Assembly (NCBI GenBank): GCA_032718475.1 | Contig: JAUCBJ010004152.1 | Span: forward strand, 1-40,524 | Source of the DNA: Nemertoderma westbladi | Lineage: Eukaryota > Animalia > Xenacoelomorpha | Direction of reading: 5' to 3' | Length of the DNA stretch: 40,524 bases | In this document: piece by piece, positions 6,325 to 36,229 of the stretch | Layout: each line of letters starts with the position of its first letter | Position numbering within the stretch: the first letter of the stretch is position 1 | Notes under the pieces: generated by a model | The model's database searches: none | The model's input: only the letters and a program-made list of their open reading frames with translations | What the model was told of the DNA's origin: nothing | Program-made: the position numbers and the translations under genes

Positions 6325-6605
6325 TCTAATCTAATCTAATCTAATCTAATCTAATCTAATCTAATCTAATCTAATCTAATCTAATCTAATCTAATCTAAT
6401 CTAATCTAATCTAATCTAATCTAATCTAATCTAATCTAATCTAATCTAATCTAATCTAATCTAATCTAATCTAATCTAATCTAATCTAATCTAATCTAAT
6501 CTAATCTAATCTAATCTAATCTAATCTAATCTAATCTAATCTAATCTAATCTAATCTAATCTAATCTAATCTAATCTAATCTAATCTAATCTAATCTAAT
6601 CTAAT
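6325..6605. repeat. (CTAAT)n microsatellite
   Basis: Perfect pentanucleotide array of ~280 bp. Confidence 0.98.
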
Positions 6606-6655: not shown

Positions 6656-6715
6656 ACTAGCAGATATCTTGGGTGATAGGGTGTTCTGGCGGCGCAACTT
6701 TGCTGACAAGCTGGC
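6656..6715 (+). mobile_element. Tiny 3'-terminal fragment of a related LINE, interrupted by LTR element A (continues at ~13815)
   Basis: GGCGGCGCAACTTTGCTGACAAGCTGGC(ATAG) (WRRNFADKLA*) matches the reverse complement of 4588-4618 (WRRNFVDKPA). Confidence 0.6.
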
Positions 6716-7261
6716 TGTGACGGGATCTACGGATCCCGGTTTATCCGTTGGGTTTTCTATCTACGCGTCCCCGCCGTGTGTGAAAGGTAAAAGAGTTCTG
6801 ATGTTCGGTTATATGTATAAGGTATAATATAGTTGATATATAGGCTATAGTATAGTATGGCACAGTTACCGGTAGATAAGTATGATGGCGGTAGCGGACG
6901 GTGATAGAAGTCACCGTTCCACCCTACTGAACTAACTGAGTAAACTGAATGAATGATTGCTGTACAGGTAATATGTACTGCACGGGTTTGGCCGTTACAG
7001 TACTTAGTCGATGCTGTCCCCCATTGGCTAATATCCCTGTTGGCACCCTTTGCCCCCCTCTGAAGTGCTTCCCTTCGCCCTTGCTGTTCTCTCTTGGTTA
7101 GGGGTTTGGCCCCTGACCCTTATTGTGTGTGTTTCCTTTGGGGCCTATTGTCCCCGTTTACTGGGGTGACACGAGGTTGATTGGTAATCAACCTCGTGCT
7201 CCCAATATTGCTTTATGGCTCACTCTATGGGTTTGTGTTAGCGGAATTGGATAAGCTAACA
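6716..7261 (-). repeat. 3' LTR of element A
   Basis: Direct repeat of 13263-13809. The only difference noticed is one C in a homopolymer. Confidence 0.95.
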
Positions 7262-7270
7262 CTCCCCCCA
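7262..7270 (-). promoter_or_regulatory. Polypurine tract of element A
   Basis: Minus strand reads TGGGGGGAG immediately before the LTR start TGTTAGC. Confidence 0.8.
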
Positions 7271-7859
7271 TGCTATCTTCCCGGTGAGAAGATAGCATCC
7301 AACTAAAGTGCGCTACAATTCCGCTGGATCCCGATCTAGCATCGGGTGTGGGGTGGGTTATTTTCTTTCTCGGAGTCGGCTTTCCAGGCCGCTCCCTGTG
7401 GGTATGATGTCACTACCCTCTGGCGTCTCGTGTCGGGCCGATCGTGCGCTTCTCTCACACAATTTTTGTTTCCCCAACACTCTCACCACTCTACTCCAAC
7501 TCTCGCATACCCCCGGACCTCCTCGTCCCACACTCTTCCTCTCACTTCTCCTCCCCCACACTTGAATTGCGCCCACGCTCTCTTCGCACTCCGTACTATT
7601 ACTCCATCCCTCCTTGACTACCTTATCCCTTCTGACGAATCTCACCCCCCCCCCCCCCTCCGTGCCGTCGCACTCAGGAAATGTGAAATCATCTGGCGTC
7701 TTGTCCCTAGTGCCATAGTCACTTAGCCCCCCAGTCCCAGTAGCTAATTGAGAAAGGTTGTATGACTATAGTACTTACACCACTATCTCCGCACTCCGCA
7801 CTATCACCTCTCCACTCTCTTGTCACTCCCTAAGGCTTTAATCTCTAATGCTACCCCTG

Positions 7860-9480
7860 TGCTATCATACTATCTACCTACTGCTTACTAACTCTAACTA
7901 TCTAACTAACTCTGCTAACTACTAACTCTTACTACTTCTAGCTCTAACTGAGAGCCTCTAACTTTCTACTGACTCTAACTCTCTACTAAGTCTAACTAAC
8001 TCCTACTAACTTTCTACTTCTACTAACTCTACTTGACTCCTCTGAGTCTACCAACTCTCTAGCCCTTTAACTAGAACTCCCTAACTCCACCCACTCTTCT
8101 AACTACGTGGCGCTTGCGGTGCCCACAACCACTCTACTTTCTGGCACCCTATGTGCCCTACTCAACTACCTCTCTAGCTCTACTAACTAACTAGCTCTAC
8201 TAACTCTACTCCACTCTTCTAACTACGTGGCGCTTGCGGTGCCCACAACCCCTTTACTACTACTTCCTTCTACGTGGCGCTTGCGGTGCCCACAACCACT
8301 CTACTATCTGGCACCCTTTGTGCCCTTCTACTACTCTACTCTATCTCTAACTCTCTAACTCTACTACCTGGCACCCTATGTGCCCTCTCTACTACTCTAC
8401 TCTATCTCTAACTCTCTAACTCTACTACCTGGCACCCTATGTGCCCGTCTACTACTCTACTCTATCTCTAACTTACTTCCTTTACATCTACTCCCTTTAC
8501 GTCTACTCGCCTACACGTGACGCTCTGAATGCCGGCAGAGTGGGTATGTTAATCATGTGAACTACTACTAACTCTTACTAACTCTACTACTAACTCTTAC
8601 TATCTGGCACCCTTCGTGCCCTTCTACTAACTCTTACTATCTGGCACCCTTCGTGCCCTTCTACTAACTCTTACTATCTGGCACCCTTCGTGCCCTTCTA
8701 CTAACTCTTACTATCTAGCACCCTTCGTGCCCTTCTACTCCTCAACTACCTCTCTAACTCTTTTTGTGCCCGGCACCTCTTTTGCCCGGCACCCACCCTA
8801 ATTAACATACCCTGCTCTTACATCAAACACGTCATCACGCCCGTGCCCCACTAAGTTCAACGCATCCCCTACTAACTCTAACTGCGTGGCGCTTCCGGTG
8901 CCCACAACCCTTCTACCGCTACTACTTTCTTTCTAACTCTTACTTTCTCTAACTAACTAGCGGTACTACGTACCCTTTAACTACTTACTCTCTTACTAAC
9001 TATCGGTACTGCGTACCCTTTGACTACTTACTAACTCTAACTCTACTCTTACTAACTGGTACTACGTACCTTCTTACTCTTACTAACTCTCTCTACTCTT
9101 ACTAACCGGTACTACGTACCCTTTATCTCTTACTCTGGCTAACTAGCTAGCGGTACTAAGTACCTTCTAACTAACTAACTCTCTCTACTCTCACTAACCG
9201 GTACTACGTACCCTTTAACTACCTACTCTCTTACGGTACTACATACCTTCTAACTCTTACTCTCTAGCTAGTTAGCGGTACTACGTACCCTCAACCAACT
9301 AACTATCCTAACTCTTACTCTCTAGCTAGTTAGCGGTACTACGTACCCTCAACCAACTAACTATTCTAACTCTTACTAACCAATGGTACTACGTACCCTC
9401 TGACTCTTACTCTCTAGCGGTACTACGTACCACCCTTTAACTAACTAACTAACTAACTAACTCTTACTACCTAACTTCTA
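7860..9480. repeat. Non-coding low-complexity array with recurrent short hairpin motifs (3' UTR of element A)
   Basis: CTAA/CTCT/CTAC linkers punctuated by GGCAC-N5-GTGCC, GGTAC-N3-GTACC and GTGGCGCTTGCGGTGCCCAC. A 37-bp tandem unit x4 lies at ~8588-8737. Confidence 0.85.
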
Positions 9481-9515
9481 CCTCCTCTATTATTTAATTA
9501 TTTTCTTATTTTTAA

Positions 9516-12500
9516 TTAAATAATTATTTTATATTTTGTGCGTGGGAAGGGCGTCTCGCCCTCATTCCCACCCCCCTCAGTCCAAAACTTTGGACGACTA
9601 AAAACTCTCACGTGCCCCTTCTTCCAGTAGGCACTCTCCTGCTGCCCTCCTATACGTCCTCTAACTCTTCGCCACACTCTCTTCGGTGCTACCTTTGCTG
9701 GCCTCCCCCTTCGTGTGTGCGCTGGCATTAGAGCCCTCGACGACCCCCGCTCGTCCCTCGGTATACGCGGTGTCTGCCCGTGCAATGCCCCCTCGCACTG
9801 TGTCCGTCCTGCGTGTGTATGCAACACGCCTCCTTCTACTTTCCCGACTCCCTTATGTTTGCTAATGGGCTTCTCTGCCCCTGGTTTAGTCCTTTCATAT
9901 CCTCTCCCTTTCCAACACTCTCCGGATCTGTGTCCTTTTACCACACATCGATGACATAGTCCGTTTGCGTCTGTGTAGGCTACACGATCTCGTTTGGGCA
10001 ACGCTTGCCAGTACTTGCAACTCCTGGTCTTATGGGTTCCGTCCCGATGTAATTGACATTGGAATCCTGGATTATAGCGTTTCCTGTATAGTCCTTCACG
10101 TATCGCGCTTAGGTTTATATGTACCGATTTAATGTTTCGATTGTCTAGACTCGGCCTACTGGGTATATTGGGATTGTGTTTATTTTTGGTGTTATTTTCT
10201 TCCTGTCCCTGCCACGGTGTGGCCCTACTACCAGCTAACTGTGGACTGGTAGTCCCCTGTATGGCCGCGTGTGGTGGTGACTGTCCGCACGACCTGCTCT
10301 CGTCCAGGGAGTTCGATATTCTTGCTCCTATCGGGGTATATTGTCGATATTGTGATGGGGGAATGTCACCCTGTCCCCCCCCCAGCCGGTATGTTTGGTA
10401 CTGGGGTTGATGTTAATACATTGGGGCCCATACGTCTATCTCCAATAACTCCCCCCTCCCCTGGATATATGTTATGTCCCTGTGTATTATAGTCATGCTG
10501 CTGTACCGATATAGGCCTACCTACCTCTCGCCTACCTACCGGTATGTACTCCGCGACTTCCGGGTTTAATCCCGTCGTTCGCGCTACCCCATCGCCTACT
10601 CTATCTCTCCCAGCATGGCCTATAATAGTATGTGCAGTAAGGCCTACAGTATGTCCTGCAGTCTGCATGTGCCCTTCCGAACCGAAGTTTATTCTTCGCG
10701 AATCTCGAATCTCCCCGCGACTACTGCACTCTCGATCGGCAGCTATATCCCGTCGGGAAGCTTCTCTCCGATCCCCTCTCCTGTTCTCGACTCTGTATTG
10801 GTACGTCTTGTACCCCTCTCTTGGCGTGCGGTGCGTTTCTCCGGGGCGACGGCAATCTCCCGAAGTTCGACCCCACTGGCTCCCTGACTCCATCTCTACT
10901 ATCGACGGTCCGTCATCCGTCCTCGCACTCCTATCGTTCGTGGCGACACCTTTTCTACTATCTCCTCTTCTTCTCTTTTCAGTGCAGTATTCCCGCTCGT
11001 GAGATCTCTCGTCGACCTCCCGGTTAAACTCCACTGTTCTTCTTCTCTCTTCTGATCGGGCTCGACGCTTCGTCTGCCCTCTCGCGACGTCAACCTGCCT
11101 CTCTCTACTCGATCGCACGCCGCTGGGGATACTCGCAATCCCCCTATTACTCTCCGTCGCCGGGTGTTGCGGTTTACCTGATTCGGCCCGCGCATTATCC
11201 GCTGACGGCTGTGGGACACTCTCTGCCCCCCCTCTCTCTCTACTAACTCTCTCGCGGTGGGGTGTCCGTAGCCCCCCCCCCACCCGCCACTTCTAACTTC
11301 ACTATCTCTTACTACACTTCTGCGTCCCTCTTGTGGGGCATTCTCTGCCCCCCCTCTCTCACCACTAATCTTATGTGGTGGGGCGCCGGCAGCCCCCCCC
11401 CCACTCGCCACATCTAACTTCACTATCTCTCACTTCGTCTCTACACCCCTCTCTAGTCGACGCACTGTCTCTACTACGGCTGGGTCTATTCACCCCCGCC
11501 TCTCTCTCTACTACTGCGTGGCCCACCAGGCCCACTTCGGGTTGGCTCAACCCCGCTACCTCCTGCCTACTAACTGCGTGGCCTACCAGGCCGCCGCCTG
11601 CCGGGCTATACACGTCTGACACGCTCATATTAATAGCACCATTCCCAATATTATTTGTTAAATCAATTAAATTATTATTTTCAAAATTTAAATTAATATT
11701 CGAATTATTTGAATTAATGTTATTATTTGAATTTAAATTTAAATTACTACTACCAGGTAAAATATTATTTGCTGCAATAAAGGGATTAGGGTTATCTACT
11801 ACGGTACTATTAATATTAACTATTTCTAACGTACTATTATTACCCCCCCCCCCCCCCCCCCCCGCCCGTACGGCTGGCTACACCAGTTCTGGTTCTCTCG
11901 CCCGGTGCCTGTAGGTGGGGTCTCACTCTCTGACAGTTCCAACCGCACCAGTTCTAGTCGGCGCTGATTCAGTTTGGCTTGATATTGCGCAAGCCTCCCT
12001 AGCACGGCATGCAAATCATCCCGCCTGCACTCACCCTCTATCCCCCACTCTCGCATATTCTGCCCGGCCAACTCTGCCTCTCTCGCAACCATCTCAAGCC
12101 GCCTCGCCGCCTCGCCGGCTCGCTCTCTACTCCCATCTCTCGCTCTCTACACTCCTTGGCTCTCTCTCTACACTCCTCGGCTTGCTCTCTATACTCCCTC
12201 TCCAACTCTCCTAACCTCTCTGAAAATGCGGTTTCCTCTCTCAATTGTCTCTCTAACTCATTCTGCTCTGTCGCAACCATTTCTAATTTATACGCCATGC
12301 GTTCACTCTCTCGCACCCGTCTTTCTTTTACGGAGGATGTAGCAGACTTATCGGTTGCGACGGACTCCCGCCGCCCCTCCGTCCTACTAACTTTCCCCCG
12401 CCTCCCGGAACTTCCTCCGACCGACGAGACCGAATCCTCGGAGTTAACCTCGGATTCGCCCTCCTCAGGTCTCTTCCAACCCACTAATTTTACTCCCCGG

Positions 12501-13132
12501 GCATCGACTAAGTATGGCCCTACGTACACTACGCTAGGTTCCATACCCCCACATTCCCATAGTTCAATCAGTTCGTTGACAACTCCCCTCGCCCTCTCCT
12601 CGGCTAGTTCTCCCTGCCCAGAACGCACTAGGTAATCAAAGTATCTGTTCGACTCACCTAGTCGTCTCCTCAGTCTCACCTCGTCTATCTTCGCCCCTCC
12701 TTTGGCCTCTCTCAGTTGCTCCCGGGTCGCGGCGTAGGCCCGTCGAAGTCGATCAGAAATCCCAACGTCCTCGTCGCCGACCTCTCCTCCATCTCTCTGG
12801 GTCCGACGTCGTACCGACGGCCCCACCGTCGCCGTTCCGGTGGACCGTTCGTCGTCCTCGGCCTGTGGCTGGCCGGCGACATCGGTGCGTCGACCCTCGC
12901 TCCGCGTCGACTCGTCTTCCTCTTCTCCTCCCGACTCGATTTCTCTTTGTAGACGACCCCCCACATCTTGGTTCGCCGGGTCGCTCGTTATCGACGTGGC
13001 GTCAACGTGCGTCGACGTGGTCGGCGTAGCATCGACCGGCGTCGTGGGTTCGTATCGTCTCGCCGTGGCCTCGCGGATCGTTAGATCGTCGTCCGGGGTC
13101 CGCGGCGGTGTCGTTCCTTTCTCTCGACTCAT
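9516..13132 (-). pseudogene. Gag-like polypeptide of element A (~1200 codons, broken by frameshifts at simple-sequence runs)
   Basis: Overlapping minus ORFs 12038-13132, 11826-12092, 11371-11628, 10366-11283 and 9516-10001 can be joined. Coiled-coil N-terminal part. C-terminal CQLH..THKTRSC..R..LCHRCVVKGHRSGEC resembles tandem BEL/Pao Gag knuckles. Confidence 0.7.
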
Positions 13133-13262
13133 CTTCGTCTTTGGTGTCTGGCAGCCACAGTCTGTCTGTTGGTTGGATCCAGTTCTATCACTGTCAGACT
13201 GTCAGGGCAGCTGCTAGGATTCTATCTCTGTCAGGGCAGCTGGGCGGATCTGATTCTATCAC

Positions 13263-13809
13263 TGTGACGGGATCTACGGATCCCGGTTTATCCGTTGGGT
13301 TTTCTATCTACGCGTCCCCGCCGTGTGTGAAAGGTAAAAGAGTTCTGATGTTCGGTTATATGTATAAGGTATAATATAGTTGATATATAGGCTATAGTAT
13401 AGTATGGCACAGTTACCGGTAGATAAGTATGATGGCGGTAGCGGACGGTGATAGAAGTCACCGTTCCACCCTACTGAACTAACTGAGTAAACTGAATGAA
13501 TGATTGCTGTACAGGTAATATGTACTGCACGGGTTTGGCCGTTACAGTACTTAGTCGATGCTGTCCCCCCATTGGCTAATATCCCTGTTGGCACCCTTTG
13601 CCCCCCTCTGAAGTGCTTCCCTTCGCCCTTGCTGTTCTCTCTTGGTTAGGGGTTTGGCCCCTGACCCTTATTGTGTGTGTTTCCTTTGGGGCCTATTGTC
13701 CCCGTTTACTGGGGTGACACGAGGTTGATTGGTAATCAACCTCGTGCTCCCAATATTGCTTTATGGCTCACTCTATGGGTTTGTGTTAGCGGAATTGGAT
13801 AAGCTAACA
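13263..13809 (-). repeat. 5' LTR of element A
   Basis: Direct repeat of 6716-7261. Confidence 0.95.
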
Positions 13810-14157
13810 CTGGCATAGCATTAGCATTCTTAATATATGTACAATAAATATATATATAATGCAGCTGACTTCAATGCAGCATGCCGTTAGTAAGTAGAAC
13901 TGCAGGGACAGGATACGATACGATACGAAGACTGATTTTCGTATTGCAGTATTTTATTCGTAACGAATTTCGTATCGTATCATAAAAATTGACGTCGTAT
14001 CGTATATTACGAATAAATATTTTTCGTATTTTATAGAATTATATTCCCTAAATGCCGTGGATTTTCAAAATTTTATTTTATTCGAATTAACTTTGTAAAG
14101 ATTGCTTTGAGTTCTCATTAGTATTTGTTCTATCATTTGTACGCCTATCGGTCAAGT

Positions 14158-14244
14158 GGTTCAGTAGCTCAGTCGGTAGAGCGTTGGAAATTATATGTGT
14201 AGTAGGTATTGAGTTCGAATCCTAGTAAGTGCGAATTATTTTTT
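14158..14244 (+). ncRNA. tRNA-like Pol III cassette in the 5' LTR
   Basis: A-box/D-arm TAGCTCAGTCGGTAGAGC, B-box GAGTTCGAATCC, followed by T6. Acceptor and anticodon stems do not pair. Confidence 0.6.
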
Positions 14245-14440
14245 GTGCAGAATTTCAACTCATTTAAATTGACCGCTACAAATTAATTGCATTTGTCTGT
14301 ACCAATGAGACTGTAGTTATTTGATTGTAACCAATGTCGTGCAAGTTATACATTAGCTGGACCAATAGCTATCTTTAAAACCTTGTTAGAACCTATAGAA
14401 CAATCGAGAATTTTCTCGATTGATTGCAGCACAAATTTGG

Positions 14441-14583
14441 TATATAAAGGTGCGATTTGTTCATTAGTTATCTCATTACTATACCATAATATATTCTCTC
14501 AGGTATTCAGTTATCTGATATTTGTTTATTCTGTCATTAGTTTTCAGATTACATTGTATTATAATTATATCTTCTGTAATAAA
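14441..14583 (+). promoter_or_regulatory. Putative LTR TATA box (14441-14448), Inr-like TCATT motifs and polyA signal AATAAA (14578-14583)
   Basis: Motifs occur in the U3-R order expected for an LTR. A 10-bp-stem palindrome at 14401-14422 lies just upstream. Confidence 0.5.
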
Positions 14584-16777
14584 GTCAGAATATTCTCTCA
14601 GCTTTTCTATCTGTTTTACTATGATTCACCACGGTGAACCCAGCTAAGGGACAGGATGGCCAGCTAGAGATCGGGCCGCAGCAATGAACGGGAACATCAC
14701 GGGAATGTAGACAAGAGACAACCCGCAATAACATCTTGAGTTATTCGCCCATCGCCTGAAAGGTTAGACAGCGTTCGACGCCTTGCTACCTAAGTATAAG
14801 ACCAAAAGATCAAAAGGTAGAAGTAGTGACACGCTGTGAGCCTAAAATTACATTTAGGGACTGTACTGTCTTGATTCAGGAAAAAACCACAGTAGACCTT
14901 CACATTCCTACGGGGGGGGAGAGCGCAGGCAGAGACACTAGTACGCAGATAGGACGTAGGCACACCGGTACGAAGCATACAAATTGGTAGGGTGCAGCAA
15001 ACTGTACGCCTAACTCTTGCTAAGTACAGGTGCGTGTGCGACTATTTGCAGTACAACGGTGTCCATTGCATTAGAACTTGTAGGCTAGGAGGGTTGTTGT
15101 GTTTTCACCTGAATTGAGATTGTACCGTTCAGGCGGTAGGGCAGTTTACAGCTAGGCGCAAATAAATTGAGGCTATTAGGGATACTAACATCTACCGTGT
15201 CCCCGCCAACGCCCTAATAGGAAGTTACCCAGACTACCTGGGTGACTAAAATTCTAGATAGGACGCCAGGATAGCTATTAGTAACAGTACGCCTACAGTA
15301 GTAAACTAACACATCTCTTCTTAGTATCAGGGACCTGGTACCTAAAATTGCCGAATTCTGGGCGTAGCATTAACCTTATGCCTGAATTTGAGTCCTGGAA
15401 ATACGCAAGAGGGGAAGGAACCTTATCATTCGTGAGTATTGGACCTACAAGTTATAAAATTAGAATATTCGTAAAATGCACACCGTACCCAGTAATTATA
15501 TATGTGAAGGAGCAAAACTGCTTTTGACTGTTTAGAATTGACACACGCGCGTTAGAAATTATTTACACCTCAAAATATATAAAATTAACTTTCGTCCGTA
15601 CTGTGTTTTGCCCGCTAGTTAGACATCTCCAAATCTCTGCCTCTGTACTTAGCTAGCGTCTCTTTGCCCAACCATATAAATCACACCGCGGCAAAGTGTA
15701 CGAGCTTCTTAGTCCGTCAGTGAGTCAGCCTGATTTTAGGATTCGCTGCGCGGGATTTTTGTTTCATCGAAGTTTGTCTGCTCGTAGACTGTTTTCTGCC
15801 TCACCGGTTATAAGAGATCGATACTGCAATATATTCGCTTACTTAGAGTTTACTGTTTTGGTGAGAAGGTCGGATTTATGATTTGATTTACAAACTTTAC
15901 TGTAAGATATTGCAGGTATTGTTACCGTCTCTTCCATATAGTAGGAATAGGCGTATCTCTTCCAATAGTAGGAATGTGTTTTACTGAACTACGGTTCGGT
16001 AGGACTAAAGTTATTTGAAAATTTTGTATTTTGAGGTAAAAATTTGTATTTGATTAGCTAAGTGCTAATTTTTTGAAATAAAATTTGATTTGAACCGCGT
16101 GTAAAATATTTTTGGAATTGAATACCGGTGTTTAAAAAGGGTTTAAATGCCATATTGTACCGGTACAAAATTTTCGTAAAGTAAAACCTAACTCTTTTGT
16201 TTTTTCAGGATTCAGAACTCATTTCTAGACTGTAACGGGAGCAAGACCGTGTTTAGCAAGTTTGGGAGATAGATAACTCAACAACTTTGGTTGGGAAAAT
16301 CGCGCTTCGTCCGCAACGTTAAAAACGGAAAGGTTCACGTCCGGTTTGTATCTGGGAATCTGTTTTTCTGGAGAATTATTGGAGTGGGTGAGTTCGAAAA
16401 GTTGCATAAATAAGTTAGGCATTACCGTATTAGTTAAAATTATTGTGGGTTCCACTGTCTCAAGTATTTATGCATTCCGTATGATTTCTTTGTTCATTGC
16501 TGAATTAGTCCGTATTATTGTATTTAATTTACATTTTGATAACGCATATCGTTATCCGATTTATTTGTTATAAAATTGGCCGCTAGGCTAATTTTATTAT
16601 ATACTTATTCCGTGACATTTATTTGCTGTAAAATTGGCCGTTTAGGCTAATTTTATCCATCTGCTATAAAATCGGCCGGTAGGCTAATTTTATATGACTG
16701 TAATTAGTACCGTTTAGATATAAATACGGTAAACTCGATACTTTGACACTCACTTTACTTGACTTACAACTACCGAA

Positions 16778-19700
16778 ATGAGTGACAAACAAGACTATAC
16801 GAAGAACACACCTACCGACTATGACTCGTGTGACGCGGATAAGTCAGCAGCGGAAGAACAACAGGGGAAGACTCGCGAGCCTACCGAACCTACACCGTGT
16901 GCGTCACCAGTACATCCAACGGGAGTACCGGATGCCGTAGTACGAGGCGACGGCAGGACCGAGGACTTTCTAACTGTTCCGCAACCTAGATACAGGGAAA
17001 TGGAGATGGTAAGTTCAGTAGGAAGCCAGGAGAGCGTAGTTAGAAGCGTCGGCGGTTACATGGCGCATATTACCAGGAGTATTGGAGAAGGCCAACGCAT
17101 ATTAGACGAGTTAACCGCTCCGATGTCTCGGTTCGAGTTCTACACTCTACAGGTGAGAGTACAGAGTAAAGTATATAAGTCCGTAGATAACCTAATTGGT
17201 CTACAAGATCTAGCTAGACAGAGACAGGATATGGACACTCAGCTTAGAATCCTCGAGAAACTAATGATCACTAGAGAGAAACTGATTCAGTTTAAGTCGA
17301 CGATTAGGCAGATACAACAGGAACAAGCGGACCAGTTGTTAGGTGAGTCGGTTTCGGACGAATTATTGCAACCCGAGGAAGAACAGGAACTGTACAGGCT
17401 AGATGGACAATTGAAACACCTGACGGATCACTTACGCATGTGCGGCGAGGACGTCGGAGATTGGGAAACCGTGCCGGAGGCTACGAGGGAAACTTCACTC
17501 GCACAAATCGAACTGGCACCGGGAACACTAAATCAATCACTGGTGAGTATTCGCAGCGAAATTGGCGAGGTGAGTATGGCTACGTCAGAAATTGCTCGAC
17601 AACAGCAGCTCTACAGACAACAACAGGAGATGGAGGAACAAACTGAACTGCTAATGGCACAAGCAGCAGTACAAGAAGAGAAACTACGTGTTGCGAATGT
17701 TGCAAGAATCTCTCATCTGCAAGAACAAGCCGAGTTGGAAGCAGCCGAGATGGAAAGATTAGAGTTGGACATTGCACAACAGGCAGCGGCAGCGGCAGCG
17801 GCAGCGTCCGAGTTAGAGCGAAAAAGGTTAGCTTCAGAAGCGAGAACCGAAATGAAAAAACGGCAAATAAAGGCTCAATCAGCTATACGACAAGCGGAGT
17901 TCGAGGCGCAACAACAACAGACGGAACAACGCGAGAAGGAAGTTAAACTTCATTTCGAACTCGGGAAGAAGGCGAGAGAATTAGCCAACGCGAAGGAAGA
18001 TCTGGATCTACAAGCCCGCGATCGATCGATGAGATCTCGTGACGGACATGATTTGGACCAGTTAAAGGTAAGGCACCGTCAAATTCAGGAACGGAAGAAG
18101 GAAGGAAGCGTAGGAGCACCCGGACGGGAACGACAATTAGTAAAGGACTTGTGTCAACGATTCCCACAGGTAACTCCTATGTTTGCACCAGTTACGATTA
18201 AGGAACCTATTTCGATTGCTGGTAGTAGTAATATTTCTCCTATCCATGGTGCGACGGAACACAGGTTTGTTATTCCGGACAAGTTTACACCGCCAAGAGC
18301 AACGTCGTCGCCTATTCCGAAAGTCAAGGTAAGTAACCCGCCGATTACAGATCGTAGTAGTTTGTTGACCAGACCTGCACTACTGACGACTAAACAGGTG
18401 AGTCCACCTTCGACACCAAAACTCGTTACGCACTACACGTACCCAATGACGTTTAGGCCTACAAAGCCTTTGGATTCAAACGCTGTAGTCCGACCACCGG
18501 TTCAGTTTACATCGCAATCTACGACTTCGAGGAAGACTTGTGAGCCTACCGAACAACGGAGACCAGTGGATACGCGACCGTTCAACCAGTTTACATCGCA
18601 ATCTACGACTTCGAGGAAGACTTGTGAGCCTACCGAACAACGGAGACCAGTGGATACGCGACCGTTCAACCAGTTTACATCGCAATCTACGACTTCGAGG
18701 AAGACTTGTGAGCCTACCGAACAACGGAGACCAGTGGATACGCGACCGTTCAACCAGTTTACATCGCAATCTACGACTTCGAGGAAGACTTGTGAGCCTA
18801 CCGAACAACGGAGAACAGTGGATACGCGACCGGTTCAGTTTACATCGCAATCTACGACTTCGAGGAAGACTTGTGAGCCTACCGAACAACGGAGAACAGT
18901 GGATACGCGACCGTTCAACCAGTTTACATCGCAATCTACGACTTCGAGGAAGACTTGTGAGCCTACCGAACAACGGAGACCAGTGGATACGCGACCGTTC
19001 AACCAATTTACATCGCAATCTACGACTTCGAGGAAGACTTGTGAGCCTACCGAACAACGGAGATCAGTGGACGATGTTCCGAAACGAAACGTGAGAATTC
19101 GTACGACGCAACGGACGCGAGCACGTCGACCACCATATCCAGATGATAGTAGTACTTCGAGCGAATCGGATTACCCGAAACGCGAGGTATTTAGAACAGG
19201 GGCGGCCGATGAATATAAACGCGAGCGTTCAGACAACTCCTTTGTAGACAATCCTCCACAGAATACACCAACACAGAAGGCGTTACAACCAACAGACGCA
19301 ATCAGTACACAACAGTTCGCCGACATTCTGCGACCAGTTGTTAACAAGTTGGCTCAGATCGAGGAACGTCTGGAGGAAGGTTACACCGACAGTTCGAGAA
19401 ATTCCGAATTCGAACACAATAGACACCCGAAGGAACCACAAAGACCGGTACCTTCAAAACATACATCGTATCAGGGAAAAGCGCCAAGAAGGGAGAACAT
19501 CAACCAGGTTACCAACCAAGGACGCGAAACTCTGAACGTTGCCGAGGAGATAGCGAAATTCGCAGCCAGACAAGGATTGCCGGTGCAACAACCACCGAAG
19601 TTTTCCGGTAGCTCAAAACACTGGCACACATTCGTAGACTATATCGAATCCCAGATCGCCGTGTGCGCCTTTACATCACTGGAGAAGTTTAATTACCTGC

Positions 19701-22700
19701 TTCAAACGTTGTCAGGAGAACCTAAACGTTTGGCGGAGACCTTCGTTGGTGTACCGGACGCTTTCGAACTAGCGTACGATCGTTTGACCTCGATCTACGG
19801 AGGCACAGTCAGTATGGCCAGGTCAGTAATAGAGGAACTCTGTAAGGGAGGGGCTATCACTAAACCCGTCGACTTATTAAAACTGGCCGACGAGATAAAG
19901 AACGCTATCACTACTTTAAGATCCATTGGACAACTCGACTACGGGAATACCCCTACAGTCCTATTAAAGATCATAGGACGACTCCACCATCGACTTCGTC
20001 GGGAGTGGAGAAAGATCGAATACCAGCGGGAAGAGCGGGGTGGATTCTTAAAACTAGAGGATGTGTACCTTTTGATATCCAGGGAAGCAGTTGTAGAAAC
20101 ACGATCCAACTACACTGACCAGCACATCGTAGCAGAAGGGATCACCTTGCCATCCTCCAACCGACAAAAACCCCAGACAACATCCACCAAGACGGCCACT
20201 TACGCCACATCGACGGAAACCCGACAATTCTCGGACGGAAGTAGGGTATCTGCGCCCATTGGGACAAAACAGACGAGACAACAACTTAGTACCGACTTCA
20301 GCGGCTGCCAATACTGCGAGCATTTAGGCAAGCGGTATATCGGTCACAAGTTGCGAAGTTGTCGACAGTTTCGCGAGTTGAACTCGGAAGAACGACGGCT
20401 GCAAATACGGCCATTGGACTCTTGTTGGCGGTGTACGCGACACGGACACGTCCGTAAAGATTGCCCAAATACCGACACTTGTCCATCCTGTGGACGCAAC
20501 CACGACGGTCTGCTCCACACAGACAGCCACACGCCGACAAAACGCTTCGCCAGGGAACACCCGGAAGCAGCAGCGAGATGTGATGCGGCCTACAGAAAAC
20601 GAGAATCGAAAACGACTCCAACCTTCGTGACCCATATTGAGGATTGCTTCTCAGAACAATCCGGATCGTCGGACGAAGAATCAGAAGACGACGACGTATA
20701 TTCGGATGGAGATGAACAGCCATCGATCGCGCTTCTGACTACTGACCAACTAAAGGGATTTAGTGTAATTCCGATTAAGGTTACTGGCACAAAGGGGAGT
20801 AAGAGAATCTACGCGATTCTAGATTCAGCCTCATCTCACAGTTACGTGGATGAAAAGATAGCTGACGTCGTGACGGATCTCAGACAAGGTAAGCGCGTCA
20901 GTTATACCGTAAGTAGTATGCACGGACAGCGTGCAATACCAGTGACACGAGTCAAGTTGAACTTAGACTCTCTTCTTCCGAAATCGCAACACAGCGAGAG
21001 GGAGAGGTCTTTGTTACCCTTTAAAGATCTAACCTTTGCGGCCACGAAGGACTTTAGTAACCTACTAGGTCCAGTGCCGGAACAATCTCTAGAGGACCGT
21101 AAGTATTTCAGACACCTTGGTGTACCCGAATGTCCTGTCAATTATAGATCGGTAGCCATGCTGATCGGGACAGACCAATTCAACCTACATCAGGTGTGGG
21201 AAACCAGACCATCGGCAGTTGTAGCGGGAAACGCATACGCCTGCAGAACGCCGATAGGGTGGTATACTCGAGCGCCTGTGCGCACACTAGACGTAAGTGA
21301 CGAGGAAGACGATGTACAAAGTACATGTAGTTTATTAACTACAAATTCAATTCATTCCTTCTCACACGACGTGAACCATACTACACTACAGTCGACAAAA
21401 CGTGACAGATGTGTGACTAGTATGATAAGTCACAAGGAGCAGCTAATTCACCAGGTGCAGAAATCGATACAACATTGGCCTCCGTTATACGACAACAAGT
21501 CTAACACCATCCCTAAGGACGCGGAAATCAAGAAACCAAAAAAGGGGAAGGCAAAGAAAAAGACAACGGCGGCAAAACTCAAGAAAAAACCGAAGGCGAA
21601 ATGGAAAGATATAACTTCAAAGGTCAAGAGAGGAAGACTTGCGAGCCTTTCTACACCAGACATATCGCCAGACGGTCAACCAGACACGTTACTAGACGGT
21701 CAATCAGACATTCTACCAGACATTAGTAACGCATTGACAAACAGTAAAGCCGCAGTTTCTCTGTTGGAGCGGCCTTCTATTGACAAACAACCAGATACGT
21801 TACCAGACGTATCGCCAGACACATTACTAGACAGTCGACTAGACACTAGTAACGTACTGACAAATAGTGAAGCCGCAGTTTCCCTATTGGAGCGGCCTTG
21901 TATTGACAAACTACCAATTTTGACACACTTGAGCAACCATAAGCACGGTGAAACCTCATGTATTACAGATGTGGGTAGTACCTACGCTAATGTAAATACA
22001 GGTGTTACTCTGCGCTCAAGAGACATACCGAACTTGCAACCTACGGTGAGACCTGGGATTAATGTCGGCAGAAAAATAAGTTTACCGAAACCTGCTGACC
22101 CCATAGAGTTCAAACCACCATTAACGATCGACTTACAAAGTACCGACAATCAAGGTAAGAAGACGAAGAAGGACAAATTACTTGTAGACCCGGACGGATC
22201 AACAGTCAACAAGGGAATACTTACCGGCGGACCCGTGGGCCCTTCTAGTAAATCAAAACCTTCCAAAATCTCCATTGACTTACCTGATGACGTCACAAAT
22301 ACTCACGTCGACCGGATTGTAAACTTAACAGACTCTTGGTCAAACGCTTGCCGAAAGTTAGCGTGGATTGTACGTTTTGTACAATACGTTAAAGGCAAAC
22401 GTGACTTTACACGTCGACTTACATTGGCTGAGATTGACAGGTGTGAAATTAAATTAATTCGCCATTACCAACTGCGATATTTCGCACGCGAATTCACATC
22501 TATAAATCAAGGCCTACCAATCAAGTCGTCACCGATACTGAGTTGGAGTCCGATTATTTATAATGGCTTAATTTGTCATAAATCTCGGCTTCAAAACATT
22601 GACTTTAACACAAACTTTAGATACCCAATAATAATACCGCAACACCACGAACTACAACGTGCAATGATACTGGACGCACATTTACATCTGAAACACGCTG

Positions 22701-23815
22701 GAAGACACCACTGTCTTTCCTACTTACGTACAAGATTTGTATTGATTAGACCCAGTAAAGCGTTAAGTTCAGTGACACGTACGTGTATTATTTGTAAAAA
22801 GGTACATTCTAGAATAGGTACCCAAGAAATGAGTGAATTACCACAAGCACGACTTCAAGCATTCAGACCACCTTTTACAGAGACTGGAATTGATTGCTTT
22901 GGTCCCATACATACGAAACGTGGACGTATACTAGTAAAACGCTGGGGACTGATTTTCACATGTATGTCCAGTAGGGCAGTTCACATTGAACGTGTGATGG
23001 ATCTTTCCACCAACGCGTTTATACTAGCACTGCGGCGATTTATCGCTAGACGCGGACTAGTAAAATGCTTGTACTCAGACCAAGGGACAAACTTTGTTGG
23101 TGCTCGGAATGAGATTGCTAGAGCCTTTAAGAAATTAGATCATGATCAAATCTCGAACGAACTACAACCTCACAAGATTGTTTGGAAGTTTAATCCTCCA
23201 GATAGTCCATGGAGAGGCGGAGTCTGGGAGAGATTGATTAGATCTATAAAGACGGCAATGGCAAAAGTCATTCCAGTAAACCACATATTGACAGACGACC
23301 AACTGACAACATTGTTTGTTGAAATCGAGGCAATACTAAATACTAGACCAATAGTATTAGTACCCGATGACAAACAATCTCAATTTGCTTTAACACCGGC
23401 ACACCTGCTAATGCAGGCACCGACCACTTTGACGCCGATTTCTATTCCAATAGAAAGCGATAGCTACGGTAGAAAAGCGTGGAAAATCACGCAACTACTG
23501 GCTAACAAATTCTGGGAAATATGGCAAAACCATTATTTGCCCTCTATTTCTGCCAGAACAAACTGGTACAATAACACCCGCGCATTAAAGCCGGGAGATC
23601 ACGTGCTGTTAGCAGAAGTGAATCTAAAAAGACGCTTCTGGATAACAGGTGTAATTTTAGCCACACATCCATCTATGGATGGAGTGACAAGAACTGTGAC
23701 GGTACGGACAATTGACGGTCGTACAGTAGACAGACCGACTCAACGTCTCGTACTTCTTGAAGAGACTCGTAACGAGTCTGGAGACTACAAATCTCCAACT
23801 AATATTAGTAAATAA
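16778..23815 (+). CDS. BEL/Pao Gag-protease-integrase polyprotein (2345 aa) with no RT/RNase H
   Basis: Gag capsid-like PKFSG..W..F..EKFNYLLQTLSGEP, three Cys/His knuckles, aspartic protease AILDSAS, integrase HHCC (H..HAG..CIIC), DDE core (IDCFGP, SDQGTNF, WERLI) and BEL-type C-terminus (FWEIWQNHYL..W.TGVI..HPSMDGVTRTV). Confidence 0.93.
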   Translation: MSDKQDYTKNTPTDYDSCDADKSAAEEQQGKTREPTEPTPCASPVHPTGVPDAVVRGDGRTEDFLTVPQPRYREMEMVSSVGSQESVVRSVGGYMAHITRSIGEGQRILDELTAPMSRFEFYTLQVRVQSKVYKSVDNLIGLQDLARQRQDMDTQLRILEKLMITREKLIQFKSTIRQIQQEQADQLLGESVSDELLQPEEEQELYRLDGQLKHLTDHLRMCGEDVGDWETVPEATRETSLAQIELAPGTLNQSLVSIRSEIGEVSMATSEIARQQQLYRQQQEMEEQTELLMAQAAVQEEKLRVANVARISHLQEQAELEAAEMERLELDIAQQAAAAAAAASELERKRLASEARTEMKKRQIKAQSAIRQAEFEAQQQQTEQREKEVKLHFELGKKARELANAKEDLDLQARDRSMRSRDGHDLDQLKVRHRQIQERKKEGSVGAPGRERQLVKDLCQRFPQVTPMFAPVTIKEPISIAGSSNISPIHGATEHRFVIPDKFTPPRATSSPIPKVKVSNPPITDRSSLLTRPALLTTKQVSPPSTPKLVTHYTYPMTFRPTKPLDSNAVVRPPVQFTSQSTTSRKTCEPTEQRRPVDTRPFNQFTSQSTTSRKTCEPTEQRRPVDTRPFNQFTSQSTTSRKTCEPTEQRRPVDTRPFNQFTSQSTTSRKTCEPTEQRRTVDTRPVQFTSQSTTSRKTCEPTEQRRTVDTRPFNQFTSQSTTSRKTCEPTEQRRPVDTRPFNQFTSQSTTSRKTCEPTEQRRSVDDVPKRNVRIRTTQRTRARRPPYPDDSSTSSESDYPKREVFRTGAADEYKRERSDNSFVDNPPQNTPTQKALQPTDAISTQQFADILRPVVNKLAQIEERLEEGYTDSSRNSEFEHNRHPKEPQRPVPSKHTSYQGKAPRRENINQVTNQGRETLNVAEEIAKFAARQGLPVQQPPKFSGSSKHWHTFVDYIESQIAVCAFTSLEKFNYLLQTLSGEPKRLAETFVGVPDAFELAYDRLTSIYGGTVSMARSVIEELCKGGAITKPVDLLKLADEIKNAITTLRSIGQLDYGNTPTVLLKIIGRLHHRLRREWRKIEYQREERGGFLKLEDVYLLISREAVVETRSNYTDQHIVAEGITLPSSNRQKPQTTSTKTATYATSTETRQFSDGSRVSAPIGTKQTRQQLSTDFSGCQYCEHLGKRYIGHKLRSCRQFRELNSEERRLQIRPLDSCWRCTRHGHVRKDCPNTDTCPSCGRNHDGLLHTDSHTPTKRFAREHPEAAARCDAAYRKRESKTTPTFVTHIEDCFSEQSGSSDEESEDDDVYSDGDEQPSIALLTTDQLKGFSVIPIKVTGTKGSKRIYAILDSASSHSYVDEKIADVVTDLRQGKRVSYTVSSMHGQRAIPVTRVKLNLDSLLPKSQHSERERSLLPFKDLTFAATKDFSNLLGPVPEQSLEDRKYFRHLGVPECPVNYRSVAMLIGTDQFNLHQVWETRPSAVVAGNAYACRTPIGWYTRAPVRTLDVSDEEDDVQSTCSLLTTNSIHSFSHDVNHTTLQSTKRDRCVTSMISHKEQLIHQVQKSIQHWPPLYDNKSNTIPKDAEIKKPKKGKAKKKTTAAKLKKKPKAKWKDITSKVKRGRLASLSTPDISPDGQPDTLLDGQSDILPDISNALTNSKAAVSLLERPSIDKQPDTLPDVSPDTLLDSRLDTSNVLTNSEAAVSLLERPCIDKLPILTHLSNHKHGETSCITDVGSTYANVNTGVTLRSRDIPNLQPTVRPGINVGRKISLPKPADPIEFKPPLTIDLQSTDNQGKKTKKDKLLVDPDGSTVNKGILTGGPVGPSSKSKPSKISIDLPDDVTNTHVDRIVNLTDSWSNACRKLAWIVRFVQYVKGKRDFTRRLTLAEIDRCEIKLIRHYQLRYFAREFTSINQGLPIKSSPILSWSPIIYNGLICHKSRLQNIDFNTNFRYPIIIPQHHELQRAMILDAHLHLKHAGRHHCLSYLRTRFVLIRPSKALSSVTRTCIICKKVHSRIGTQEMSELPQARLQAFRPPFTETGIDCFGPIHTKRGRILVKRWGLIFTCMSSRAVHIERVMDLSTNAFILALRRFIARRGLVKCLYSDQGTNFVGARNEIARAFKKLDHDQISNELQPHKIVWKFNPPDSPWRGGVWERLIRSIKTAMAKVIPVNHILTDDQLTTLFVEIEAILNTRPIVLVPDDKQSQFALTPAHLLMQAPTTLTPISIPIESDSYGRKAWKITQLLANKFWEIWQNHYLPSISARTNWYNNTRALKPGDHVLLAEVNLKRRFWITGVILATHPSMDGVTRTVTVRTIDGRTVDRPTQRLVLLEETRNESGDYKSPTNISK
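18503..19071 (+). repeat. 84-bp (28-aa) in-frame tandem repeat x7 in gag
   Basis: QFTSQSTTSRKTCEPTEQRRPVDTRPFN repeated. One unit is 81 bp. Confidence 0.97.
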
Positions 23816-24477
23816 TTAGGAGTTTACAAATAGATTTCCACGTACCTGTACACTGTAGTAAGGACAGCGGTAGAATTCCATTGTCTTTATATGTGAACAT
23901 TGAGGGTCCCTTATGTGTCACATAGGAGCGGGATTTGTAGGTATAAGAAATGGAATTCTACTTGGAACTCACAATATTGAGACATTTTCGAAATTTTAGA
24001 CAATCCATTTGGATTTGAAAATTTTTAAAATTTTCTCCAGTAAATAGATTTCAGGGTACAGTCGGGTGGAACTTAAAATTAGAGAAACAAGAGAGGAAGA
24101 CTTGCGAGCCTTTCTTAAAATTGTAATTAAATTTTACACGGTCTTGTTTCAATAAGTTACGTCAATAAATAGACTCCCCTATATTTATTACTAATTCTTG
24201 ACTGCTTATTTTCTGATAATAGTTTGGGATCAAAAAGTGAGTATTTTAGACTCACAGCCAGTTTAGCCCAAATTCGTTTTTTATTTCGGCAAAAAAAAAA
24301 TTTTAGATAAGAAGCAGCGTGTCATTAAAGAAACCTTAGATCTTAGGCTATGGGTAGGAGGTTAGAGCGTTGTCGAAGCCCAAAAGGCAGACGAAACTCT
24401 CACGTCTCCTCACAACTAACTACAAACTCTGTTGTATTCCCTCTAGTAGTAATGATTATGTAACTACACCTCTAATT

Positions 24478-26183
24478 ATGGAGAAAGGGATACAAGGAGA
24501 GCCGAGATGGGGATATGATATCCAAGAGGAAGCGGCAGCTTCATTCGAACGATTTGGAGCAAAAGACTACACTATATTTGGTATAAAGGAATTATCAGAA
24601 AGTACAGCGAAGCTCGCAAAGACAGCAATGCCTTTACTCGAGCAGGATTTAGCATATTTCGAGACGTGTATCTTCGCTGTGCGGGATCTCTTATCGAAAG
24701 ACCATCTATGTTTACATTGTTACCCTATGAAGGAGAACGTATCGTGGAGATTATGGATGAATCACGGCAGACGCGCGCGCCTATCGGTCACCTTGGTGAT
24801 GATTTCGAAGTAACTACTACGATCACTGACGATCCTTTAGAAGAACTTCTTGAGATAGAAAGGAACCTCCCGAAGAAATCTCAGACGGAGATTCGACAAC
24901 TTGAAGCAACAGATGCTATAGTTTGCATACAACCTTCAGAAACCTACCAACCCATAGATCCAGATGATTACGATTATAGTGTGGGAGGAAGCGCTCGACC
25001 GATTGGAGATCTTATATACGAACGAGTGTGGTACCCTGCCAATACGATGTGTAGTAAATGTGGCGTCGCTGGACATCATATGACAAAGTGCAGTGGAAAG
25101 CACATTACTACGACTCAGCTAATCTGTGGATGGTGTGGGGATCAAGGGTCTCATACCTTTTATACTTGCTGGAGATTTATGGCTCAATGTACTTACTGCA
25201 ATATAAAGGGCATCGAGCATCTGAATGCCAACTAAAAGACATACCCTATGAACACGAATCTGTAAAACTCGTGAGAAAATTATTTGATGAGTGGGAAGAT
25301 TTAGCCGACGAACATGTATCGGCACAAAGAAGACGGTTTCCGATGAGGGCGCATCTTGGATTTTGGGCGGTAAATCCCCAGACGATGATGTCGGAAGGAT
25401 ATATCTCCGCTATGCCCCAATATGACGAACTTATTGAGGTTGTCGATATTTTACCCCACGACAGTGGATTCCGAGTAGTGCGCGAGTATCTATTACAAAT
25501 TCACCCGGATAACAAAAACACGTGGAATTTTCAGAAAGTCGTTAATCGCATTACGTATGTATGGTGAATTCGATCGTTTCCGAACTGAAAAGCGGAACAA
25601 AGGAGCTTGGTTAACCGTCGCATGGGCGTACCGAGCCGCGTTTTACCACAAACGTATACGAGCGAGCGTATTCAAGGAAGAGGAGGTCCTAGAGGCGACA
25701 AATATACCAGCCACTCCGGTTGCGCCGTCTGCACGTCACCCTCGGGAGGACGGACAGGGTAGGATCATACGGGTCCAGAAAGTGGGCCAACAATTAAAGA
25801 AAATTATTAATATAGAAGAACGCAAGGGAGCTGAGCCGACCATTCGAGTTACTCGGGATACGGTATCGCTTCCTAGAGAACCAACAGGAGGATCGGGACA
25901 CACCCCAGCTGATGAGAAGGGGGCACAAGCTACTCTTGGGTCTGCGTCGTCCGCTTCTCGCGCGTTCCCAGACGTTCTACCAACTGTAGTGACAACTGAT
26001 CGGTCACGAGGAGTCGGTCGAGGTTTTGGGATGCCAAATAGACGAATTTGCGAGGAAATAGTCGCACCGTCTCTCAACGTCCAAACGAAACCAGTGACTC
26101 GCCCCATTAGTCCCATATCGCGAGCAAAGTCACCTGTGCGCAGTTTTCGAGGACGCGGCAGGGCTCGATCCACTAAGCGATAA
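24478..26183 (+). pseudogene. Accessory ORF2 of element B: triple CCHC zinc-knuckle protein, three frame breaks
   Basis: Overlapping ORFs 24370-24813, 24666-25235, 25058-25567 and 25557-26183. Knuckles CSKCGVAGHHMTKC and CGWCGDQGSHTFYTC, plus CTYCNIKG/HRASEC completed across the frameshift at ~25210. RG-rich basic tail. Confidence 0.75.
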
Positions 26184-26771
26184 AAGGGAGGGCAAGGGTG
26201 GACGGAAGACTCGTGAGCCTTTCTTATGATTTTGTGATTTATTTGAATTTATATTTATATTTGTGTTTATTCCGAACTTATGCAATTTATATTGTTCCGA
26301 ATACTATGCAATTTATATCTTATAAGTAGTATTTGTATTTACAGTGAAATAGAAATTTTCATTTATTTGTATTTGTAATTGTTTGAATTTATGCAATATT
26401 GAAATGCAATAGATTTATATTGGTGAATTTAATTTAGATTTATATTGTACTTACTTAGTAAAGCCTTAAATACGTAAAGTTTGAATTTGTAATTAATTTT
26501 GTATCGAATCATTACGTAGAAAGGAAGTATTGTTTGAAACTTAATTGTAAATATGTAAGTACGCCCTAAGTATTCTATAGTTTGATTGATTATTGGTGAA
26601 AACCGTATATTTTATGCACGATAATATCCTGTTTTCATGGAGCGGTATAGAATTATATTCCCTAAATGCCGTGGATTTTCAAAATTTTATTTTATTCGAA
26701 TTAACTTTGTAAAGATTGCTTTGAGTTCTCATTAGTATTTGTTCTATCATTTGTACGCCTATCGGTCAAGT

Positions 26772-26858
26772 GGTTCAGTAGCTCAGTCGGTAGAGCGTTG
26801 GAAATTATATGTGTAGTAGGTATTGAGTTCGAATCCTAGTAAGTGCGAATTATTTTTT
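26772..26858 (+). ncRNA. tRNA-like Pol III cassette in the 3' LTR
   Basis: Same sequence as 14158-14244. Confidence 0.6.
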
Positions 26859-26941
26859 GTGCAGAATTTCAACTCATTTAAATTGACCGCTACAAATTAA
26901 TTGCATTTGTCTGTACCAATGAGACTGTAGTTATTTGATTG

Positions 26942-27138
26942 AACGCCGACACAAGGGTGGGACAGTAGAGTCAGGAACTCATACCGGTATCATAAACAAT
27001 TTCAAAATCAGTTTGGTTATTTTATATTATTTAATTCCCTTGTATGGTTTAAATTTCCCGCCTTTTGCTCATTTGATAATATAAATTTACTATAGTTTTT
27101 GGTCCTACTGTAAAAAAAAAAAAAAAAAAAAAAAAAAC
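26942..27138 (+). mobile_element. Short polyA-tailed retroposed insertion in the 3' LTR
   Basis: Absent from the 5' LTR. Ends in ~26 A. Flanked by an 11-bp TSD TTATTTGATTG (26931-26941 / 27139-27149). Confidence 0.92.
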
Positions 27139-33046: not shown

Positions 33047-33522
33047 TTACATCACTTGTACTGCCGCTCTACTCTCACTCACTGCCGTACTACGCCGCTC
33101 ATAGAACGGTCTACATTCCTTTTCAACAGTTTCCTTGGATACAACGATCTTGACGACGTCCGACCCTGGTACGTCATACATACTCTGTAGAAGCAAACGT
33201 TCTAGAATAGCTCGTAAGCTACGCGCCCCGGTCCGTGTTACTATGGCTTTATTGGCGACGGCGGCTAAGGCATCGCTAGTGAACTCCAACTCGACCTGGT
33301 CCTGTATTCGGAACAGCATCCGGTACTGGTTGAGAAGGGCGTCCTTGGGTTGGGTGAGTATCGCGACCAGATGGTCCACAGTCAGCGGGTGCAGTGCCAC
33401 CCGTACCGGTAGGCGACCCATAAACTCAGGGATCAACCCGAAGTCTATAAAGTCTTGAGTTTCGGCTTTCTGAAGGAGAAGATCGCGCTGGTCTTTGTCG
33501 TCTAAATAATCCTGAGATCCGC
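33047..33522 (-). CDS. CLPX: Mitochondrial ClpX-like AAA+ ATPase, last coding exon
   Basis: DFIDFGLIPEFMGRLPV..ILTQPKDALLNQY..TGARSLRAILERLLLQSMYDVPGS. AG acceptor at 33524-33523, phase 1. Confidence 0.92.
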
Positions 33523-33556
33523 CTTAAAGTGAAAATAAATTCGATTTTGTAGTAAA

Positions 33557-36051: not shown

Positions 36052-36211
36052 TTAATAACGAGTGCCCTACATAACGGCGCAGTGCACTTAATAACGAGTG
36101 TACTTCATAACGGTGCAGTGCACTTTATAACGGCGCAGTGCACTTCATAAAGGTGTAGTGCACTTCATAAAAGTGGTAGTAGTGCACTTCATAACCATTG
36201 CAGTGCACTTA
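36052..36211. repeat. ~20-bp minisatellite (ATAACGGCGCAGTGCACTTC-like)
   Basis: About 8 degenerate copies. Confidence 0.85.
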
Positions 36212-36229
36212 ATGTTATATGCTGTATTT

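Follow-up and report, generated by a model that had tools for sequence, protein, structure and literature searches.

In the Tf1/sushi group, for which Tf1, Tf2 and Tj1 are the described cases, no tRNA site follows the 5' LTR and the site just past the LTR is complementary to the LTR RNA of the element itself (accessible parts of PMC7175516, PMC4600332 and bioRxiv 2022.12.06.519325). The available portion of PMC7175516 describes for Tf1 that the first 11 bases pair with this site and that RNase H cuts between bases 11 and 12. In plants, self-priming has been predicted for Tcn1 chromoviruses and TAR (Houba/Osr-1) copia elements, based on complementarity of at least 10 nt beginning 0-5 nt after the LTR (PMC6317226, in excerpt), and self-priming entries for fungal elements are found in the accessible parts of PMC6934838 and PMC4600332. 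The Belpaoviridae (Semotivirus) are assigned an 18-nt site complementary to the 3' end of a host tRNA, and their replication is described as tRNA-primed and poorly understood (ICTV, PMC8742986). Self-priming is known in Tf1/sushi, Tcn1 and TAR, and the ICTV family profile is without it for BEL/Pao. Likewise, no report of BEL/Pao self-priming appears among the literature matches listed, which were judged mostly by their listing and cover sources other than subscription journals, Repbase and supplements. The accessible parts of PMC3601003, PMC3286476, PMC554778, PMC13524379 and PMC8220671 contain no such report, and the words "primer", "PBS" and "tRNA" are absent from PMC3118150.

We analysed a 40,524-nt stretch of a Nemertoderma westbladi contig (JAUCBJ010004152.1, positions 1 to 40,524), hereafter the window, which carries two young LTR elements, A and B, whose first internal bases are complementary to their own LTRs. 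We suggest, with a probability of roughly 0.75, that A primes reverse transcription with its own RNA by folding back, in the manner of Tf1, and not with a host tRNA.

Element A is a likely BEL/Pao derivative

Element A extends over 6716-13809 on the minus strand, with LTRs that are 99.8% identical.

13263-13809, minus strand: 5' LTR, 547 bp, TG..CA ends
6716-7261, minus strand: 3' LTR, 546 bp, one 1-bp indel relative to the 5' LTR
6711-6715 and 13810-13814, no strand: the two copies of a 5-bp target-site duplication, CTGGC
7262-7269, minus strand: polypurine tract abutting the 3' LTR
9516-10412, minus strand: piece of reading frame with a BEL/Pao-type double zinc knuckle, the sole recognisable coding remnant of A

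The knuckle matches the BEL/Pao knuckle profile with an E value of 2.5e-10. Its two units are separated by 20 residues, a spacer identical in all BEL/Pao proteins that fit the pattern (98 of the 121 fetched); the first unit is of the CxxH form and a third is not recognisable. Counting against our reading, the link of A to BEL/Pao is one knuckle of 50 residues, compared with a BEL/Pao profile and with no gypsy or copia control. A word-based search with the knuckle returned zero homologues, which is weak evidence, and a search of viral contigs found no relatives. Neither capsid, protease, RT, RNase H nor integrase was found in A, and it holds no long reading frame. We conclude that A is a recent insertion of a non-coding LTR retrotransposon, likely of BEL/Pao origin, and probably a non-autonomous derivative of the family and not a full member. 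Near-identical LTRs, the lack of pol and internal tandem arrays liken it to the LARD-like and Culex cqUNK non-autonomous elements (PMC3286476, accessible part); unlike cqUNK, whose table rows there carry tRNA sites, A has a gag remnant and a self-complementary site. The tandem arrays, several in number, lie within the 3' half of A (7886-9462), and a 56-copy array of a 5-bp unit is found just outside it at 6325-6605.

The primer-binding site of A pairs with its own LTR

13251-13262, minus strand: non-tRNA primer-binding site abutting the LTR end, a 9-nt core (13262-13254) plus 3 nt
13448-13460, minus strand: 3' part of the candidate self-primer, with 9 perfect pairs, a 1-nt bulge and 3 pairs; cut predicted after 13448 by analogy with Tf1
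13473-13503, minus strand: cluster of five initiator-like TCA[G/T]T motifs, a candidate transcription start zone
13287-13292, minus strand: GATAAA, non-canonical, the only poly(A)-signal-like hexamer among those scanned downstream of the primer

Internal bases 13262-13254 of A pair perfectly with LTR bases 13456-13448; after a bulged C at 13457, LTR bases 13460-13458 pair with 13253-13251. A preliminary description of this DNA had reported this geometry (no TGG, nine pairs plus three after a 1-nt bulge, and an offset of 0 at the first base outside the LTR), and on recheck its coordinates, letters and each of these points held. Its chance estimate for the 9-mer, about 2e-3, is close to what we measured: when the LTR was dinucleotide-shuffled 2000 times, a fraction of 0.002 gave an equal match at offset 0, and among 5870 other internal positions the fraction was 0.0024. 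The TCAGT-like motifs that it had placed upstream of the primer are the five listed above, starting at LTR positions 307-333 (13503-13477).

Neither A nor B has a TGG in the 0-5 nt next to the LTR end, or the 18-nt host-tRNA site that the ICTV gives for the family. Since A has no TGG at its site, an intact tRNA 3' end is excluded as its primer. No tRNA gene was found in the window or in 49 loci scanned, and an Rfam search of 13100-16100 gave no match. A splice-built primer was sought for A and none was found, and one contig-only RNA run (share 0.18) has zero cover over the primer site. A lacks AATAAA, and upstream of its primer it lacks a TATA-type hexamer; both absences count against self-priming.

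A longer duplex and a competing core copy

13465-13491, minus strand: upstream LTR segment, predicted in-register partner of leader 13221-13248
13221-13248, minus strand: leader segment, predicted partner of the LTR extension 13465-13491
13302-13322, minus strand: second copy of the 7-nt core in the LTR with flanking helix arms, competing for the primer and predicted to mask it in the 3' copy
13183-13228, minus strand: two more repeats resembling the LTR end and primer-binding site, in the leader, with cores at 13226 and 13189
13445-13464, minus strand: local hairpin over the primer segment, minor in longer folds
13268-13285, minus strand: 7-bp hairpin just inside the LTR end, U5-IR-like by position

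Pairing in A may extend well beyond the core. An in-register extension, missed by the preliminary description, carries it some 35 nt further upstream and reaches -27.8 kcal/mol with the core removed, a value equalled in 1 of 300 shuffles and in none of 129 other LTR windows. The whole duplex (-41.2 kcal/mol) is matched by 0 of 200 shuffles and 2 of 200 pseudo-leaders. Folding models predict that LTR 13491-13448 and leader 13262-13221 form an interrupted duplex of about 45 nt. Against self-priming, the extension is ordinary once its position is left free (core removed, 50 of 200 shuffles are as good), and it has no significant counterpart in B or in three relatives described below (L055, L084 and L008).

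The 7-nt core occurs again at 13308, inside the LTR, and at 13226 and 13189 in the leader, where the copy at 13189 is a full 9/9 partner; these copies had also been missed. Four copies within 120 nt amount to local duplication, which shuffles do not model, and they too weigh against the reading of A as self-primed. In predicted folds of the 5' RNA, the primer segment prefers the in-LTR copy (0.73) to the primer site (0.27), a further point against it, the two folds lying 0.6 kcal/mol apart. When the RNA start is set at 13460-13456, the preference is 0.92-0.97 versus 0.03-0.08. In the context of the 3' end, with no leader downstream, folding predicts the primer segment to be bound by the in-LTR copy at 0.95. 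The preliminary description had proposed a local hairpin as a possible switch: its stem exists (13463-13458 with 13451-13446, -12.9 kcal/mol locally), but the favoured alternative fold is the one with the in-LTR core copy. As the main switch the hairpin was rejected, being 3.8 kcal/mol worse than the best fold with an RNA start at 13497.

These copies raise the question of whether the pairing is a by-product, namely an ordinary LTR stem, with local duplication having carried its 3' arm across the LTR end, while the true primer is something else. The four core copies in 120 nt and the success of the in-LTR copy in the folds would fit such an origin, as would in-LTR core copies of 7-9 nt in A, B and the outside loci L014, L045 and L065 (0-9 of 300 shuffles as good), though the other 18 of 23 loci tested lack one. 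A decoy copy in the LTR end is accordingly not supported as a general feature, being present in 5 of 23. Yet duplication of a stem arm gives no account of the in-register extension, which has other letters, of the offset-0 register in both A and B, or of the splice-junction matches in relatives, and we regard it as unlikely. The reading that A is primed by its own RNA accommodates the in-LTR copy in another role, discussed below.

Element B has the same geometry and belongs to BEL/Pao

14032-15967, plus strand: 5' LTR of B, 1936 bp, TA..TA ends, TATTT duplication
26646-28790, plus strand: 3' LTR of B
14901-14911, plus strand: candidate self-primer of B, 11 nt
15968-15978, plus strand: non-tRNA primer-binding site of B
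16778-23815, plus strand: polyprotein of B with BEL/Pao capsid, knuckles, protease and integrase; RT/RNase H not detected

Element B spans 14032-28790 and encodes one frame of 2345 residues whose integrase matches BEL/Pao proteins. No break interrupts the frame between gag, protease and integrase, and low-complexity sequence occupies the place expected for RT/RNase H; B is a pol-deleted element in which particle and integration proteins are still encoded. No RT was detected in A or B, and both would need RT from elsewhere. The self-match of B is 11 nt at offset 0, with P 0.001 in both the shuffle and the internal-position tests. Its in-register extension is not significant (166 of 300 shuffles), and a splice-built primer for B was rejected (8 nt, with 5 of 150 pseudo-sites as good).

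At the DNA level the two elements are not similar (best E 1.1), and their knuckles match only weakly (E 0.009). The preliminary description had taken their shared geometry, found independently in sequence-unrelated elements, as a shared mechanism, without naming its Tf1/sushi precedent. The mechanism gains support from the relatives described below; "independently" is an overstatement, since both elements look BEL/Pao. A bears a BEL/Pao-type knuckle and B is BEL/Pao, so they are likely kin, and the geometry they share probably reflects inheritance and not independent invention.

In B 1056 nt separate primer and site, which pair in the lowest-energy fold only if the RNA begins with the primer. 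The folds favour an RNA that begins upstream of the primer in A and one that begins with it in B. This distance would suit a primer that comes from the element but acts in trans or from another RNA end (a short LTR transcript, a second packaged RNA or a 3' end lacking poly(A)) and needs no fold-back cut, and complementarity in DNA reads the same in cis and in trans. Set against such a primer are the predicted masking of the 3' copy in A (0.95), the poly(A) signals downstream of the primer in four spliced relatives, and the precedent of Tf1, whose RNA folds back and is itself cut (PMC7175516, accessible part). We judge a trans-acting primer distinctly improbable and retain fold-back priming in A.

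Several further observations concern B and its surroundings. A stretch of 222 bp (13810-14031) separates A from B, and the two are arranged back to back, with their 5' LTRs recorded as facing outward. The LTR ends of B are TA..TA, with a 5-bp duplication, instead of TG..CA, apparently as in the outside locus L008. A near-copy of the junction between LTR end and primer site is present upstream in the LTR end (15940-15978), its core of 8 nt lying 27 nt short of the end (2 of 300 shuffles), resembling the extra copies in A. A tRNA-like stretch at about 14157-14225 in the B LTR, to which we presumptively assign an A-box and a B-box, has no match with ARAGORN or Rfam and is possibly a SINE remnant. 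The 3' LTR alone holds a 208-bp insertion with terminal poly(A) (about 26931-27138). Past the integrase, frame pieces at 24358-26183 have knuckle-like Cys/His motifs, with no Pfam match in the two pieces scanned, and may belong to an accessory gene. Elsewhere in the window are a ClpX-like exon (33047-33523) whose best matches are bacterial at 45-57%, a fibrinogen-C frame (30038-30898), a weak THAP match (881-1564) and satellites of 12 bp and 43 bp at the window end (36200-40524).

Outside BEL/Pao loci without TGG match their own LTRs

The preliminary description had proposed a genome-wide scan for enrichment of such self-matches over shuffled controls. We ran the check on outside BEL/Pao loci instead of the host genome. 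The B integrase as query yielded 98 loci, 78 from metagenomes and 20 from prokaryote-labelled assemblies (evidently host contigs), and the LTR end is fixed by both LTR copies in 13, which form the tested set. In 8 of these, TGG lies within 0-5 nt of the LTR, and the match to the LTR is at most 5 nt. We take the TGG motif at these eight loci to be a tRNA-Tyr site. In contrast, all five loci without TGG have a self-match of 11-15 nt starting 1-4 nt after the LTR, giving 5/5 versus 0/8, an outcome that favours the preliminary description. Some TGG loci are near-copies (L072/L075 and L009/L015), so the effective sample is about 11.

The match is 12 nt in L017, 15 in L055, 11 in L084 and 11 in L008, in each case across a GT..AG junction and present only after removal of a predicted LTR intron; in L080 it is 11 nt and unspliced. 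As many as 2 of 300 pseudo-sites are as good in L008, and none in the other four. The splice idea came from L017 (with L014), L055 and L008 were tested later, and L080 and L084 were fetched later. The four spliced relatives have a TATA-type box 140-240 nt upstream of the donor, a primer end 6-8 nt beyond the acceptor, and AATAAA or ATTAAA downstream of the primer. The pattern of L017 is repeated in its kin L014 and L020. The letters of the site differ between families and the pairing is kept. An in-register extension is seen in L017 (9 of 300 shuffles, 1 of 133 other windows) and in L080, where shuffles rarely equal it (1 of 300) but 37 of 144 other windows do; in L055, L084 and L008 it is not significant. 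Compared with these five relatives the perfect core of A is shorter, 9 nt, and below the 10-nt cut-off used in the accessible part of PMC6317226, which also speaks against self-priming of A.

Among 14 loci in which the LTR end is not fixed, counted with no null model, a match of 10-13 nt stands at a plausible end in 8, L085 is ambiguous and 5 have none. L065 carries an additional TGG-type site about 80 nt further in. An open scan for matches was not counted, having a lenient null and probable false matches (L001, inside its own reading frame, and L053). In an integrase tree built by a quick method (41 rows, 58 loci left out in all, L097 dropped), the TGG label clusters with 2 changes (0 of 500 shuffles), which does not amount to one origin; B sits on a long branch without placement, which counts against our reading. 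Non-TGG sites like those of L017 and L014 follow an apparent LTR end at the contig starts of L006, L019, L022 and L076, the upstream LTR falling outside the contig. L090 and L097, and likewise L079-L098, are BEL/Pao elements with LTRs in a Wolbachia chromosome record and bacterial MAG records, probably through host contamination or misassembly.

The relatives bear directly on priming by a host tRNA fragment, such as a half-tRNA of the kind known from some copia lineages, or by another host small RNA. Half-tRNA priming exists in Osser, Bryco and Bianca (PMC6317226, accessible part), BEL/Pao is tRNA-primed according to the ICTV (PMC8742986), and AC or AT terminates the candidate primer in A, in B and in most of the matched relatives, an agreement that self-priming leaves unexplained. 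Yet a host fragment predicts no complement in the LTR, and one is present in every non-TGG relative, with different letters, and in no TGG relative. We consider a host small RNA very unlikely as the primer of A. Since 5/5 non-TGG relatives have a site complementary to their own LTR, copying in this group likely begins from a fragment of the element's RNA, and we hold it highly probable that non-TGG relatives use an element-derived primer.

Proposed mechanism

Self-priming of A would take the following course. Extension in register would require transcription to start at or upstream of about 13491, and hence a long 5' fragment of 30-55 nt, not an 11-mer, would serve as primer. Upstream helices would set the register of pairing; this would account for the LTR ending at the first core copy when an equally good one lies 71 nt further in. 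RNase H/RT supplied in trans by an autonomous relative would make the cut after 13448, and extension from that end would run across the LTR end. At the 3' end of A RNA, the in-LTR core copy would mask the primer copy. Splicing may give the spliced relatives a like asymmetry, if the 5' copy alone is spliced. In that case the junction would stay outside the first cDNA, and an unspliced 3' copy would restore the intron, which would explain the survival of an LTR intron.

Comparison with Tf1 brings out what is shared. The Tf1/sushi trait, a non-tRNA site adjacent to the LTR and complementary to it, is found in both elements, with 9+3 nt in A and 11 nt in B. Unlike Tf1/sushi, neither shows the Ty3/gypsy chromovirus descent of that group; the knuckle of A and the integrase of B are BEL/Pao. 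According to the accessible accounts, the Tf1 primer is the first 11 nt and both flanking duplexes come from LTR downstream of it, whereas in A the leader-side duplex comes from LTR upstream of the primer, implying a longer 5' fragment. Nor does a forced fold of A model the three-duplex "pretzel" described for Tf1 (bioRxiv 2022.12.06.519325, accessible part): its leader is predicted to pair upstream and its LTR end to form a local hairpin. Also unlike Tf1, four of the five relatives have the primer across a predicted splice junction. On this reading A works like Tf1 but is outside the Tf1/sushi group. The Tcn1 and TAR elements differ as plant gypsy and copia lineages, against a core of 9 nt in A, and the splice-built primer is absent from their account in the accessible part of PMC6317226.

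Against BEL/Pao the elements are alike in LTRs, purine tract, target duplication and a double gag knuckle with a 20-residue spacer, and in B also in capsid, protease and integrase. They differ in that A has no detectable capsid or pol, B has no RT/RNase H, and neither has a host-tRNA site. On balance we lean slightly towards a broader proposal, that a large part of BEL/Pao has exchanged tRNA priming for a self-priming unlike that of Tf1, in which an internal primer ends a long 5' fragment and every element keeps the 3' twin from competing, mostly through a primer that exists only once an intron in the 5' LTR is spliced out and in A by a decoy helix and the duplex of about 45 nt.

Significance

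If BEL/Pao self-priming is real, it would be a further origin of the process beside Tf1/sushi and TAR, in a third superfamily. The Cer7 element of C. elegans reportedly encodes a primer-like RNA of its own, which was not found in the literature searched. Self-priming would account for BEL/Pao elements that have no findable primer site and are missed by tRNA-based annotation, and the self-match offers a simple test at the level of DNA. Persistence of the pairing in A, which is young and without pol, means that its function would depend on enzymes supplied in trans. The splice-built form would couple reverse transcription to host RNA processing: if a large part of BEL/Pao is self-priming, mostly with such a primer, host splicing would gate reverse transcription.
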